Source of the DNA: a virus
Lineage: Duplodnaviria; Heunggongvirae; Uroviricota; Caudoviricetes
Length of the DNA: 26,915 nt
Reading direction: 5' to 3' (one strand)
IMG/VR virus record: IMGVR_UViG_2541047885_000002
Span: 1-26,915 of that record
Notes under the pieces: generated by a model
Database searches by the model: none
Told to the model about the DNA's origin: nothing
What the model saw: only the letters and a program-made list of their open reading frames with translations
In this document: positions 3,917-8,073 of the stretch, in pieces
Layout of the letters: each line of letters opens with the position of its first letter
How positions within the stretch are numbered: position 1 is the first letter of the stretch
Position numbers and translations under genes: made by a program

Positions 3917-4565
3917 TGGCAGCAAATACCGAAATATTTGGGTAGTTGGCGATCTGCACGGATGCTACACGAACCTGATGAAAAAACTGGAGACGATAGG
4001 ATTCGACACCAAAAAAGACCTGCTTATCTCGGTTGGCGATTTGGTCGATCGCGGTACAGAGAACGTCGAATGTCTGGAATTAATCACATTCCCCTGGTTC
4101 CGAGCTGTACGTGGAAACCATGAGCAAATGATGATTGATGGCTTATCAGAGCGTGGAAACGTCAATCACTGGATGCTTAATGGCGGTGGCTGGTTCTTTA
4201 ATCTCGATTACGACAAAGAAATTCTGGCTAAAGCTCTTGCCCATAAAGCAGATGAACTTCCGTTAATCATCGAACTGGTGAGCAAAGATAAAAAATATGT
4301 CATCTGCCACGCCGATTATCCTTGTGACGAATACGAGTTTGGAAAGCCAGTTGATCATCAGCAGGTAATCTGGAACCGCGAACGAATCAGCAACTCACAA
4401 GACGGGATCGTAAAAGAAATCAAAGGAGCGGACACGTTCATCTTTGGTCATACGCCAGCAGTGAAACCACTCAAATTTGCCAACCAGATGTATATCGATA
4501 CCGGCGCAGTGTTCTGCGGAAACCTCACATTGATTCAGGTACAGGGAGAAGGCGCGTGGGCATAA
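3894..4565 (+). CDS. ninI: NinI, Ser/Thr protein phosphatase (lambda-PPase, metallophosphoesterase)
   Basis: Starts [28 protein letters not shown] with the GDLHG, GDLVDRG and GNHE metallophosphatase motifs; SD GGAG upstream of ATG 3894. The track's longer ORF from 3819 is rejected as an upstream in-frame extension. Confidence 0.93.
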
Positions 4566-5074
4566 GAGAACTAAACCTCACCAAAGAACAGCATGAGTGG
4601 CTGAATGGCTGGCTTGAACTGTGGGGCGCATGGGTTTATTCAGGTCGTCTGGAAAAGCGCATGAGCAGCGTAATAGCGAAGTTCATGGAGAGCGTAGAGC
4701 CGGGAAGAGTTATGACAAGGCCAATGTGCAATGATGATGATGGAATGTTGATTTCTCAGGTCGTCGATTCCGTCATGTACATTGACAAAAAAGCCTTTGG
4801 CATCCTCCTCAGCTACTACGCTCATGGTTCATCTAAGCGAGCAATTGCATCCTACTATCACGCGACTGCAAAGCCACGCAAGATGTGTGGACGTGGTGGC
4901 GAGGGATGGAGAAAACCTTCACTGGCAACCTGTAGAAACGAAATTGACGACATCCTGAAAGCGTCATTATTTGTTTTATACCAGCCAATGCAAAATGCTT
5001 TCAAAATGCGTAAACGTGTTGAGAAAGTTAAGCATGTTGCTGTTAAAAGCCTTGACATGCAATTAGCCATTTAG
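4556..5074 (+). CDS. Q: Late antiterminator Q (phage 21/933W-type, not lambda-type)
   Basis: Position directly after ninI and directly before a promoter-terminator pair. N-terminal LELWGAW resembles the LERWGAW motif I recall from Q of 933W/H-19B. Start taken as GTG 4556 after GGGAGAAGG; the exact start is uncertain. Confidence 0.7.
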
Positions 5075-5081
5075 CCATAAT
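5052..5081 (+). promoter_or_regulatory. Candidate late promoter PR' (sigma70), overlapping the 3' end of Q
   Basis: TTGACA (5052-5057), 18-bp spacer, CATAAT (5076-5081). Location matches PR' of lambdoid phages, where the qut site overlaps the promoter. Confidence 0.6.
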
Positions 5082-5122
5082 ATTCACATATGCTGCTGCT
5101 TTTGCATTCAGCAACCATCACA

Positions 5123-5146
5123 AGCCCACCTCCTGTGGGCTTTTTT
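5123..5146 (+). terminator. Intrinsic terminator, candidate tR' (target of Q antitermination)
   Basis: Stem GCCCAC (5124-5129), loop CTCCT, stem GTGGGC (5135-5140), then TTTTTT; about 60 nt downstream of the predicted PR' start. Confidence 0.75.
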
Positions 5147-5268
5147 GCATTCGCGTGCAATCAAAACAAGAGTCTTAGTGATATGGGCCTGAGATATGGT
5201 GGTGGAAACATCGCTCCGCTCTTGGCTGTCATATCTACGCGAACAGGCTCTATCCCTAAGGTAAAGCG

Positions 5269-5781
5269 ATGAAAGAAATAAAATTAACGCCAGAAATGGT
5301 GCTTTCTGTTGTTGATTACAATCCATCATCAGGCGACTTTCACTGGAGATGGAGGCAGGGGAGAGAGAGGACCACTTTGACATGGAACTCTCGTTTTGCT
5401 TTCAAGAAATGCTCATCAATAAATTCTGATGGGTATTTAATGATTATGATTAATGGTAAAGCATGCCCTGCTCACAGACTGGCATGGTTGATTGTTTATG
5501 GCACCATGCCCGATGGTTTTATTGATCACATCAACAGGGTAAGAACAGATAACCGGATATCAAATCTTCGTCTTGTCACTCATTCCGAAAATATGCAAAA
5601 CAGGAAAATTCAGAAGAATAATAAATCTGGATACCGTGGCGTGTCTTGGGATGCTAAGTACGGGAAATGGAGAGCAAGAATTAATGCGTCTGGAAAGTGT
5701 ATTAACCTTGGATACCATGACACTGCCGAACTTGCCGCTGCGGCTTTTGAGGCAGCCAGAATGAAATATCATACCGTTTAA
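5269..5781 (+). CDS. HNH endonuclease with C-terminal AP2-type DNA-binding domain (moron)
   Basis: HNH core ...AHRLAWLIVYGTMPDGFIDHINRVRTDNRISNLRLVTHSENMQN... and AP2-like SGYRGVSWDAKYGKWRARINASGKCINLGYHDTAELAAAAFEAA. SD AAGGTAA upstream. Confidence 0.8.
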   Translation: MKEIKLTPEMVLSVVDYNPSSGDFHWRWRQGRERTTLTWNSRFAFKKCSSINSDGYLMIMINGKACPAHRLAWLIVYGTMPDGFIDHINRVRTDNRISNLRLVTHSENMQNRKIQKNNKSGYRGVSWDAKYGKWRARINASGKCINLGYHDTAELAAAAFEAARMKYHTV

Positions 5782-5787
5782 AGATGT

Positions 5788-5832
5788 AAGCTGCCGTTAG
5801 TGACTCTTAAGTTGCAACGGTGGCTTTTTTTA
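5788..5832 (+). terminator. Putative intrinsic terminator after the HNH gene
   Basis: AAGCTGCCGTT (5788-5798) pairs with AACGGTGGCTT (5816-5826) including two G-U pairs, 17-nt loop, then a T7 run. The large loop lowers confidence. Confidence 0.45.
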
Positions 5833-6080
5833 TTTGCACAACAGGTAAGAGCATTGAGTCGATAATCGTGAAGAGTCGGCGCGCCTGGTTAGCCAGTGCT
5901 CTTTCCGTTGTGCTGAATTAAGCGAATACCGGAAGCAGAACCGGATCACCAAATGCGTACAGGCGTCATCGCCGCCCAGCAACAGCACAACCCAAACTGA
6001 GCCGTAGCCACTGGCTATCCTGAATTCATCAGTGATAGTTACGCTGCGGCCTTCTACACATGACCTTCGTGAAAGCGGGT

Positions 6081-6115
6081 GGCAAGAGGTTGCGCTAACA
6101 ACCTCCTGCCGTTTT
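6081..6115 (+). terminator. Strong hairpin plus U-tract in the late leader (candidate terminator or RNA structure)
   Basis: GGCAAGAGGTTG (6081-6092), loop CGCTAA, CAACCTCCTGCC (6099-6110) giving 11 of 12 pairs, followed by GTTTT. Confidence 0.5.
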
Positions 6116-6215
6116 GCCCGTGCATATCGGTCACGAACAAATCTGATTACTAAACACAGTAGCCTGGATTTGTTCTATCAGTAATCGACCTTATTCCTAA
6201 TTAAATAGAGCAAAT

Positions 6216-6231
6216 CCCCTCAATGAAGGGG
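6216..6231 (+). promoter_or_regulatory. Hairpin sequestering the holin Shine-Dalgarno sequence (sdi-like)
   Basis: CCCCT (6216-6220) pairs with AGGGG (6227-6231), loop CAATGA; the 3' arm is the holin SD, 6 nt before ATG 6238. Confidence 0.5.
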
Positions 6232-6237
6232 TAGAGC

Positions 6238-6441
6238 ATGTACCGTATGGACAAAATCAGAGAATGGTTCAGTTACAGCTTCGGAGGACTGACTGCGATG
6301 GGTGGCATTCTCTCCCTGAATGACTGGGCTGTCATCATTGGTATTCTTTGTACTGTCGGCACATTTGGCATCAACTGGTACTACAAGCGCAAAGAGCGCG
6401 AGGACAGATTGAATGGCAATGTCACCGGCACTACGAAATAG
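6238..6441 (+). CDS. Holin, phage-21 S-like class II pinholin with dual-start motif
   Basis: 67 aa, two TM segments (Gly-rich [17 protein letters not shown] and [19 protein letters not shown]), charged C-terminus, N-terminus MYRMDKI paralleling S21 MKSMDKI. Immediately upstream of the endolysin. Confidence 0.8.
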
Positions 6442-6916
6442 CGTAATAGCGGCGATAAGTGGCGGGGCTATTGCTATAGCATCTGTGTTAATCACTGGAC
6501 CAAGTGGTAACGATGGCCTGGAAGGTGTCAGCTACATACCATACAAAGATATTGTTGGTGTATGGACTGTATGTTACGGGCATACAGGAAAAGACATCAT
6601 TCCCAGTAAAACGTATACCGAAGCAGAATGCAAAGCCCTCCTGAATAAAGACCTTGCCACGGTCGCCAGACAAATTAACCCGTACATCAAAGTCGATATA
6701 CCGGAAACAACGCGCGGCGCTCTTTACTCGTTCGTCTACAACGTGGGGGCTGGCAATTTCAGAACATCGACGCTTCTTCGCAAAATAAACCAGGGCGATA
6801 TCAAAGGCGCATGTGACCAGCTACGTCGCTGGACATACGCTGGCGGTAAGCAATGGAAAGGGCTGATGACCCGTCGTGATATTGAGCGTGAAGTCTGTTT
6901 GTGGGGGCAGCAATGA
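6413..6916 (+). CDS. SAR endolysin (T4-lysozyme-like, phage 21 R-type)
   Basis: N-terminal Gly/Ala-rich signal-anchor-release segment ([17 protein letters not shown]) followed by the lysozyme core [25 protein letters not shown]; near-identical to R21 as I recall it. Confidence 0.9.
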
Positions 6917-7350
6917 GCAGGGTAACCGCGATTATCTCCGCTCTGGTTATCTGCATCATCGTCTGCCTGTCATGGGCTGTTAATCATTACCGTGATAACG
7001 CCATTACCTACAAAGAGCAGCGCGATAAAGCCACATCCATCATCGCTGATATGCAGAAGCGTCAACGTGATGTAGCAGAACTCGACGCCAGATACACAAA
7101 GGAGCTTGCTGATGCTAACGCGACTATCGAAAGCCTCCGTGCTGATGTTTCTGCTGGCCGTAAGCGCCTGCAAGTCGCCGCCACCTGTGCAAAGTCAACG
7201 ACCGGAGCCAGCAGCATGGGCGATGGAGAAAGCCCAAGACTTACAGCAGATGCTGAACTCAATTATTACCGCCTCCGAAGTGGAATCGACAAGATAACCG
7301 CGCAGGTTAACTACCTGCAGGAATACATCAGGACGCAATGCCTGAAATAA
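6913..7350 (+). CDS. Rz: Rz (i-spanin)
   Basis: [34 protein letters not shown]... matches the lambda Rz N-terminus; ATGA overlap with the endolysin stop. Confidence 0.9.
7112..7297 (+). CDS. Rz1: Rz1 (o-spanin lipoprotein) embedded in the +1 frame of Rz
   Basis: [36 protein letters not shown]: lipobox LAVSAC followed by a Pro-rich segment; SD AAAGGAG 7 nt upstream; lies wholly inside Rz. Confidence 0.75.
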
Positions 7351-7411
7351 TTTTTTTGCAAATCACAAAGTCAATTTAATGAGTCTCGCGATGCGGGGCT
7401 TTTTGCAATAA

Positions 7412-7436
7412 ATGCGTACCGCAACGCATGTTTTTT
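7412..7436 (+). terminator. Intrinsic terminator downstream of the lysis cassette
   Basis: ATGCGT (7412-7417), loop ACCGCA, ACGCAT (7424-7429), then G plus TTTTTT. Confidence 0.65.
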
Positions 7437-7551
7437 ACACCGAACCTGCCCCTTTGGAATGGGCCTTTGAGGATACCAGTTAGTGCTGGCGAGCCTCGGT
7501 GGGCTGGTTTCCTATGCGGCAAAGGTTCATTTCAAATGGTAGGTAAACGTT

Positions 7552-8073
7552 ATGAATATCGTGCCACTTAATTACAAAGGTGAAATTGTCAGTTTCAACA
7601 CTGATGGTTGGATCAACGTCACAGGTGTTGCTGAGAGATTTGGAAAACGCATTGATAACTGGATGCGTTTGGCAGAAACGCTTGAATACGTTCGTGCTTT
7701 AGACGAAGCGTTGACCGGGAAAGAATCTCAAATTTTACATCCCTCACAATCGAGGTATGTAAAAACCAGCAAGGCACGAAAGGACAGGGGTGGTGGTACG
7801 TGGCTACATCCAAAACTTTCAGTTGCATTTGCCCGTTGGTGTGATGCTCGTTTTGCTGTGTGGTGCGACCTGCACATTGATAGTCTGCTTCGCGGTGAAC
7901 TGACTGAGCAGCAGAAATATGAGCAAGCATGTCGCATTCGCGATGACCGGAAATCAAAAGCCAGCAATGGGGCAAGAGAGATGGCTCGCTGGCGATGGGA
8001 TAAGCCGGTTATTGAAGCAAATGTTGAGTACTGGCGCGAGCAACTGCAGTTGACTCTCGATATCGCGTGCTGA
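7552..8073 (+). CDS. KilA-N domain protein
   Basis: Core GTWLHPKLSVAFARWCDARFAVWC fits the KilA-N/APSES-type motif as I recall it; 173 aa. Confidence 0.6.
   Translation: MNIVPLNYKGEIVSFNTDGWINVTGVAERFGKRIDNWMRLAETLEYVRALDEALTGKESQILHPSQSRYVKTSKARKDRGGGTWLHPKLSVAFARWCDARFAVWCDLHIDSLLRGELTEQQKYEQACRIRDDRKSKASNGAREMARWRWDKPVIEANVEYWREQLQLTLDIAC

Follow-up and report, generated by a model that had tools for sequence, protein, structure and literature searches.

An HNH-AP2 endonuclease gene behind a conserved pseudoknotted leader RNA: a candidate homing cassette in the phage-21-type late leader of a P22-like phage

HNH endonucleases that end in an AP2 domain are carried by the Xanthomonas phages Xp10 and Xop411, by Felixounavirus and by other phages, often in several copies per genome, and are annotated as homing endonucleases. 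Those genes sit between the genes of lytic phages, and none has been reported in a Q-dependent late leader. Here we describe a gene of the same two-domain architecture and size, its product 41-45% identical to those enzymes, in what we call the window, that is, the whole stretch of 26,915 nucleotides that was analysed (positions 1 to 26,915 of IMG/VR virus record IMGVR_UViG_2541047885_000002), which represents the late half of a P22-like Escherichia coli phage or prophage. The gene (5269-5781, + strand) stands in the leader of the late operon behind the gene of the late antiterminator Q, and it is preceded by a structured RNA of about 125 nt that appears to be undescribed. We consider it somewhat probable, from comparison of sequences, that the locus is a free-standing homing-endonuclease-type cassette inserted in the late-operon leader of a P22-like phage with a phage-21-family Q switch.

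Several described systems resemble parts of this arrangement. I-HmuI of phage SPO1 (PDB 1U3E) shares with the window protein the fold of residues ~1-115 and the D-H...N...N catalytic positions. Sequence similarity between the two is marginal (phmmer E 0.79), and they differ in setting and C-terminus: a group I intron encodes I-HmuI, which has a helix-turn-helix module at its end, whereas the gene of the window protein stands by itself in a non-coding leader and the protein closes with AP2. The position of the gene is that of the lambdoid Q-pR'-tR' cargo slot, home to tRNAs in phage 21 and to stx in 933W-type phages, with the same expected dependence on read-through by Q. Lambdoid cargo, however, lies downstream of a single tR', whereas the window insert stands upstream of the resident tR' and adds a second initial transcribed region and terminator, which leaves the terminators in tandem. 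For expression, the nearest parallels are I-TevI of T4 and mobE of Aeh1, where late or read-through transcription is said to be combined with mRNA structure hiding the ribosome-binding site, as reportedly worked out in 1988 by Gott et al. and in 2007 by Gibb and Edgell, respectively. The likeness is that the Shine-Dalgarno sequence of the window gene lies in a helix supported by covariation; the difference is that I-TevI and mobE use simple hairpins, whereas the window has a multi-helix pseudoknot of ~125 nt with invariant unpaired bases, common to genes that do not encode nucleases. Finally, gene 61 of phage HK629 and its counterpart in E. coli E2348/69 show no sequence difference in kind from the window gene, and the HK629 record labels the first of the two hairpins discussed below only 'terminator'. 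What is new is the fidelity to the Q21 late leader, its rebuilding with tandem terminators and, above all, the shared pseudoknotted leader RNA.

The reading frame at 5269-5781 encodes an I-HmuI-like endonuclease of 170 aa, and the intact HNH-AP2 gene that a first-pass annotation had placed downstream of Q is indeed there, both Pfam domains scoring above their curated cut-offs (HNH_3, E 3.8e-18, 65 bits against 24.8; AP2, E 1.6e-8, 35.1 bits against 33.3). It matches PHROG 99 (E 2e-72), and an NCBIfam search of the protein returned no named family. Across 40 homologues of 38-94% identity D86, H87 and N99 are invariant and N108 nearly so, and these residues align with D74, H75, N87 and N96 of I-HmuI. 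The top PDB fold match of the AlphaFold2 model (pLDDT 91) is I-HmuI 1U3E (residues ~1-115, 105 columns; Foldseek E 1.2e-3, probability 1.0). Against its orthologues the protein has a pN of 0.19-0.32 and a saturated pS of 0.78-0.89, for which reason we give only pN and pS and no dN/dS; since pN is low while pS is saturated, the protein is under purifying selection. Homologues that share less than 60% identity with it are found in 3,222 phage records, frequently more than one to a genome, and many of them bear the annotation homing endonuclease. The gene is, in short, a known, annotated and ordinary-looking phage HNH endonuclease.

The C-terminus of the model matches the plant AP2 domains of ERF1, TEM1 and WRI1 at probability 1.0, the last also by sequence (E 2e-6), and phage proteins with an AP2 domain are capable of silencing (bioRxiv 10.64898/2026.02.23.707548). 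Both points would suit a DNA-binding regulator, in which the AP2 domain makes a transcription factor in the manner of the CasPR anti-CRISPR silencers or of plant AP2/ERF proteins, with a vestigial HNH part. We think this very unlikely, given the constancy of the HNH catalytic residues among the homologues; the CasPRs, moreover, combine CapR with AP2 without an HNH domain and are found in Bacillota (bioRxiv 10.64898/2026.02.23.707548).

Further free-standing HNH_3 or HNH_3+AP2 genes were seen in related prophages (L015 1458-1964, L021 1302-1868, L017 178-789, L024 1776-2297, L028 959-1549 and L030 1544-2098), where they sit at other module boundaries, namely in the ninF/ninG gap, after the primase/helicase gene or just before Q. 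Two predicted proteins, P0019 and P0020, are chimeric and contain half of the window's HNH-AP2 protein (99% identical); the combinations are PF11650 with HNH_3 and AP2 with Phage_CII (PF05269), and they could be recombination products or assembly artefacts.

The distribution of the gene is marked by its attachment to one place. In phage HK629 (JQ182735) gene 61, 'HNH endonuclease', is 99.7% identical and lies in the same place after the same Q, and a prophage of E. coli E2348/69 carries the same gene; nucleotide identity with both is 99-100%, and we found no functional study of either in the literature. Among 5,426 complete E. coli genomes the gene is present in 39, at 98.8-100% identity, and about 415 E. 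coli genomes have an empty junction of the Sf6/HK75 type, so that it occupies ~9% of compatible sites. A large assembly collection has 896 blocks with the identical protein. At ten listed places among them its gene starts, in 10/10, 194 bp past the 172-aa Q, and there it accompanies holins of three types and terminases of at least four types (Sf6-type, P22 gp3/Terminase_6, lambda Nu1/A and Terminase_2/3). Without exception, the orthologues at 52-75% identity (E. coli, Pantoea, Serratia, metagenomes) follow a Q of the Q21 family at a distance of ~225 bp, after pR', the initial leader described below (leader A) and a terminator. By this comparison the HNH lineage has kept one genomic address while nearly all its surroundings changed, and it is linked to Q rather than to a terminase type.

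These same data bear on two other roles. Certain packaging machines of the cos type include HNH proteins (Kala et al. 2014, cited in PMC12315714), and the window protein might by analogy aid the terminase in genome cutting, as HK97 gp74 does; the first-pass annotation had named membership of the terminase or packaging machinery as a finding that would count against its account. Yet the identical protein accompanies at least four terminase types, which excludes a packaging role, and terS is 3.6 kb downstream of its gene, beyond the lysis cassette and a KilA-N gene. The packaging genes of the window phage are of the P22 headful type, ~90% of sister phages do without the gene, and the HNH_3+AP2 domains are unlike the small terminase-adjacent HNH proteins of Kala et al. 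We regard packaging as effectively refuted.

The low occupancy of compatible sites can also be read in the light of phage competition. Late in infection the nuclease could attack the genomes of rival Q21-type phages, or a host target, and be kept for that reason, any gene conversion being a by-product. Marker exclusion by the Seg and Mob enzymes of T4 is an established precedent, expression of the window gene would be timed with lytic growth, the gene occupies only ~9% of compatible sites, and relatives share a conserved non-coding target candidate. Set against this, PADLOC matched the protein only with generic 'homing endonuclease' models and with no defence system, leaving a defence-system role without support, and sequence alone cannot separate exclusion from homing. 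We hold exclusion as the reason for its upkeep to be quite unlikely.

The late switch into which the gene is placed looks intact and of the Q21 type. Q (4556-5074, + strand, 172 aa) belongs to the phage-21 family (Pfam PF06530 Phage_antitermQ, E 1e-25; PDB 6JNX/6P18, E 1.6e-92), and it is a mosaic, residues 1-102 being nearly identical to the crystallised Q21 and the C-terminus (103-172) clearly diverged. The late promoter pR', TTGACA-18-CATAAT, overlaps the 3' end of Q at 5052-5081 (+ strand) and matches the consensus at 11/12 positions; the near-consensus promoter proposed as PR' in the first-pass annotation is borne out. A simple consensus scan ranks it first within 4000-7000, but because the promoter-like sites there (6 observed against 4.7 +/- 2.5 in shuffles) are not above chance, the scan by itself is weak proof. 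Stronger support comes from HK75 and Sf6, which carry the same Q and whose annotated pR' is base-for-base identical; the Sf6 record calls its own pR' nearly identical to the phage 21 late promoter, and the -35 element is invariant across Q21-family variants. The HK629 record (L001 2178-2183) puts a 'putative late promoter pR'' at TCTACG, and the HK75 and Sf6 records place pR' as we do. TCTACG fits neither promoter hexamer consensus, and we rejected a promoter inside the leader RNA, where no consensus site was found and where this hexamer sits in an invariant RNA segment; a pR' lying elsewhere, which the first-pass annotation had named as a finding against its account, is thus not borne out.

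Between the -35 and -10 elements lies an 8-bp direct repeat, ATTAGCCA/TTTAGCCA (5062-5077, + strand, read from the sequence), the only such repeat in this promoter and the probable Q-binding element (QBE). Yin et al. (bioRxiv 10.1101/651190) report two 8-bp subsites, directly repeated, as the QBE of Q21, and Q-loaded complexes from positions -40 to -1 of PR'21 with a -10-like pause element at its native position. The repeat varies with the Q variant (TTAGCCA, TGAGCAA, TGAACAA, TGAGCCA and TTTACCYA among the window and L009, L012, L013, L028, L030, L036 and L054) and the -35 and pause elements stay fixed, so it looks as if Q specificity and binding site co-vary, which fits a role for the repeat as recognition element. 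As the repeat differs from that of phage 21, the diverged half of Q (103-172) may hold the DNA-reading part. The anatomy of the Q21 family, namely a Q21 homologue, a two-subsite repeat, a promoter-proximal pause element and a terminator, is complete and in register with relatives.

Downstream of pR', alignment defines the initial transcribed region of leader A (5082-5121, + strand) with a -10-like pause element, TATGCT, at 5089-5094. Every aligned Q21-family leader has TATGCT, as in the window, or TAAGCT, as in the phage-21, Sf6 and HK75 types, beginning 8 nt past the -10 hexamer, and all orthologous loci, as well as the Hafnia phage yong1, which lacks the HNH gene, keep ACATATGCTGCTGCTTTTGCATTCAGC of leader A. 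Directly past the pause element GCTGCTGCTTTTGCATTCAGC (5095-5115) is almost invariant across deeply diverged loci and yong1, and a small hairpin is possible there. The first late terminator, the tR' of leader A, was located by terminator scan at 5122-5146 (+ strand; hairpin 5122-5142, T-run 5141-5146), with the stem AAGCCCAC/GTGGGCTT and six T. The region 5088-5150 folds at -21.5 kcal/mol (z = -3.2), and 0/200 shuffles fold as well; a compensatory stem variant, ACCCGCC/GGCGGGT, occurs in L054. The strong terminator suggested earlier as a tR' candidate is borne out: in yong1, which has no HNH gene, no other hairpin followed by a T-run lies in the interval from Q to the holin gene, and for that reason we take this one as a genuine tR'-type terminator.

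Between this terminator and the ATG (5147-5268) a simple sigma-70 consensus scan found no site with 9/12 or more matches. Since no promoter was detected there, the gene is most plausibly expressed by Q-dependent read-through, in line with the earlier proposal that the gene is expressed mainly under Q antitermination. The label 'moron' fits only loosely: the gene does occupy the cargo slot, but it has no detected promoter of its own, the stretch in question being structured RNA, and so it fails the strict definition.

Comparison with HNH-less relatives delimits the insert. In place of the 7 bp (TAGAAGG) of Sf6/HK75-type phages the window has, by alignment, a segment of 705 bp (5082-5786, + strand), followed by a remnant 21/Sf6-type leader from TAAGCT onwards (5787-5831, + strand) that includes a canonical tR' hairpin (5788-5826) and a seven-T run (5825-5831). 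The left junction is sharp: all HNH-less relatives in the phage collection cease to match at 5081, where the -10 hexamer ends, and the boundary falls at 5081/5082. In a matched pair, the plasmid-borne prophage L006 and Sf6, the 600-bp flanks are 99.0% and 98.0% identical, with 705 bp against 7 bp between the anchors. The empty-site junction reads CATAAT followed by TAGAAGGTAAGCTGCC in HK75/Sf6 and GGGCTTTTT followed by GCATTTAGCG in yong1. In phages of the yong1 type that carry an HNH orthologue the insertion is a clean 669 bp right past the T-run, made up of RNA leader, gene and own hairpin, with flanks 96.5% and 94.9% identical to yong1.

The hairpin behind the window gene had been taken for the gene's own. 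The hairpin and its T-run are present, but they appear to be the resident tR', which directly follows pR' in the HNH-less HK75 and Sf6: there the order is CATAAT, TAGAAGG and then TAAGCTGCCGTTAGTG...GGCTTTTTTT, the annotated tR', and in the window the same tR' lies past the HNH gene. It is 98-100% identical to the annotated tR' of HK75/Sf6 and to the hairpin after the Q21-type Q in an O157:H7 Stx2 prophage, and it folds at -20.2 kcal/mol (z = -4.3; 0/200 shuffles as good); its bulged stem is why a simple terminator scan missed it. The insert thus seems to have brought its own initial transcribed region and terminator, leader A, a feature beyond the earlier account. Two records, L004 (PhiR12_1, PV340549) and L011 (E. 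coli NCTC9112), keep pR', leader A and the RNA leader but, of the HNH reading frame, only the first 68 nt, after which they switch to a CP-933V-like region with a SASA-family esterase gene; from their sequences they look like decayed or recombined copies of the cassette.

The window as a whole contains nin-region genes, Q, the lysis cassette, Terminase_2/Terminase_3 genes and the P22-type portal, scaffold and coat genes, and its closest phage relatives cover about half of it at ~94% identity. Past the cassette, a lambda-like late leader runs up to the holin gene (5832-6237, + strand), 97-100% identical to HNH-bearing and HNH-less relatives alike, followed by the holin (6238-6441) and endolysin (6413-6916) genes, which agrees with the Q-to-lysis location first given for the HNH gene. 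That this is the stx cargo slot is confirmed by the layout of the Stx2 prophage of E. coli O157:H7 MB41-1 (L012 2458-4192), where this tR' hairpin comes after a 163-aa Q21-type Q and leads to three tRNA genes, with stx2A/B behind them; the tRNAs of phage 21 are placed likewise. All the elements named in the first-pass annotation are therefore confirmed in or near their places, and its interpretation of the HNH locus is partly supported.

The stretch from the first T-run to the ATG (5145-5268, + strand) is occupied by the conserved pseudoknotted leader RNA, ~125 nt long, defined with RNAalifold on 24 distinct copies and by pair counts. The first-pass annotation had not noted it. All its parts lie on the + strand. 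A hairpin, P1 (5145-5150 with 5155-5160), presents a loop, UUCGCG (5150-5155), that pairs with CGCGAA (5238-5243) in an internal loop interrupting the main stem (5186-5195 with 5233-5249), forming the pseudoknot. Inner helices join 5197-5200 with 5228-5231 and 5201-5206 with 5215-5220, and the Shine-Dalgarno AAGG (5258-5261) is hidden in an outer helix (5174-5176 with 5259-5261). The conserved fold is thus a set of helices plus a pseudoknot, closed by a helix that holds the Shine-Dalgarno sequence, and its G-U pairs fit a + strand RNA only. Loci whose HNH proteins are only 52-71% identical and whose synonymous sites are saturated have leader RNAs 78-97% identical.

Pair counts support this fold at each step of sampling, although they overstate independence, the alignments being partly structure-fitted and the copies falling in few clades. 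With the 24 sequences 99.0% of cells are paired, against 32-53% when the partners are slid, double changes occur in 9/29 pairs against 0-2, and the covariation score was reached by 0/500 shuffles. With 28 distinct, model-fitted sequences the figures are 97.6% against 33-49%, and 15/29 pairs against 2-5. With 69 distinct sequences and the pseudoknot included they are 94.3% against 32-52%, and 21/34 pairs against 2-8; here the pseudoknot helix alone is 96.9% paired with double changes in 4/6 pairs. It occurs in six versions (UUCGCG/CGCGAA, UCGCA/UGCGA, UUCACC/GGUGAA, UCUCAC/GUGAGA, CUGACAU/AUGUCAG and UCGUAC/GUGCGA).

A covariance search of Rfam 15 found nothing on the + strand in 5145-5268 at E up to 10, and likewise for a KilA-N-type copy; searches of the literature found no description of this leader RNA. 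CasPR and Pas-sRNA systems were considered as explanations and set aside, having different domains or a different Q family. Two reading frames across the leader, of 60 aa (5090-5272, + strand) and 91 aa (5108-5383, - strand), were rejected as genes, 1- and 2-base indels among homologous leaders breaking both frames. The leader RNA therefore appears to be undescribed, and covariation in the aligned sequences supports it strongly.

The RNA is not confined to HNH genes. In the sampled copies (L010, L077-L079, L129-L266 and the window) it is ~125-145 nt long and always lies past an intrinsic terminator within a late operon, reading in the same direction, in phages of Escherichia, Klebsiella, Serratia, Pectobacterium, Symbiopectobacterium, Hafnia and other genera. 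The 84 distinct proteins downstream comprise 66 KilA-N and 10 HNH-AP2 proteins, along with GIY-YIG/T5orf172-like, Rha/Ant-like and another type of HNH protein; a search with a looser pattern shows the family to be larger than what was sampled. A bare 17-mer scan of species genomes gave mostly chance matches in unrelated phyla, and only those in Enterobacterales are real. Because non-nuclease KilA-N and Rha genes share it, the leader RNA is not specific to homing endonucleases.

A second copy lies in the window itself, ahead of the KilA-N gene (7552-8073) and behind a terminator at ~7382-7404. This leader (7412-7551, + strand), placed by homology and inspection, is provisionally a third, diverged subfamily of the class. 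Our covariance model (R1) missed it, and it was recovered through a weak R1 match elsewhere (L024 5534-5684) and inspection. On the + strand its P1 spans 7412-7429, with the loop CCGCA (7419-7423) pairing with UGCGG (7515-7519), and an outer helix of ACCU (7444-7447) with AGGU (7541-7544) covers the Shine-Dalgarno sequence. In relatives the pseudoknot covaries, CCGCA/UGCGG being replaced by CCGAAA/UUUCGG (4 distinct sequences).

The cassette reading can be put as a sequence of steps. The promoter pR' (5052-5081) would fire constitutively and, without Q, transcription would stop at the first terminator (5122-5146) to give an RNA of ~60 nt. Q would bind the direct repeat of pR' and load onto RNA polymerase paused at TATGCT, and the Q-modified polymerase would pass both terminators, with HNH as the first cistron of the late transcript. 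As polymerase would need Q to pass the terminators, the HNH mRNA would be made only late in lytic growth. The 125-nt pseudoknotted leader, with the Shine-Dalgarno sequence inside its outer helix, would throttle translation. The HNH-AP2 protein, with its I-HmuI-like N-terminal region, HNH core and C-terminal AP2 domain, would then nick or cut the HNH-less Q21-family late leader of a co-infecting or resident relative, and recombinational repair would copy the cassette in along with its own leader and terminator. We infer Q-dependence, translational repression, the cleavage target and homing from the comparisons above; the clean presence and absence of the insert and its fidelity to one site across genera point to a homing-endonuclease cassette.

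Several observations weigh against this. The evidence on cleavage, homing and transcript ends is wholly comparative, and a simple consensus scan could miss an unusual promoter inside the leader. The two types of empty site differ, the insertion falling past the -10 hexamer in the Sf6 type and past the terminator in the yong1 type, so that a single recognition site is no obvious explanation for both. Phages without the HNH gene also have a mosaic boundary at TAAGCTGCC, the right edge of the insert, which recurs in ~330 more E. coli records, HNH-less contexts among them (for example the sampled Stx2 prophages). The same leader RNA precedes non-nuclease KilA-N and Rha-type genes, and ordinary recombination of lambdoid modules at conserved boundaries could yield the same pattern of presence and absence with no nuclease involved.

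Such passive exchange is the main rival to homing: the gene would be an accessory of the late operon, spread by homologous or boundary-sequence recombination, and the nuclease would play no part in its spread. The recurrent right junction speaks for it, as do the tRNAs and stx of this slot, which move without nucleases, and the terminator-leader-gene layout that also carries KilA-N and Rha genes. It accounts less well for the purifying selection on the catalytic residues and on both DNA-binding modules despite saturated synonymous sites, or for the use of one site in three genera while the downstream genes and the Q subtype change, and the nearest characterised relatives are homing enzymes. 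We see passive cargo as unlikely and retain the homing-endonuclease-type cassette as our preferred reading.

More tentatively, and we hold it as doubtful, the leader RNA could be a new class of riboregulator, responsive to a factor or ligand, that gates selfish or accessory genes for DNA-binding proteins (HNH, GIY-YIG, KilA-N and Rha) in the late operons of enterobacterial temperate phages, with the HNH lineage homing on a non-coding Q-loading and terminator leader rather than on a conserved coding gene.

If the HNH-AP2 lineage homes, its target would be a conserved regulatory non-coding sequence. Through the insertion the late leader acquires two terminators in tandem, and control of the late genes could become tighter. 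The leader RNA has no match in Rfam 15, goes with at least four unrelated gene families and is a candidate for a new class of cis-regulatory RNA that would restrain toxic or selfish phage genes.

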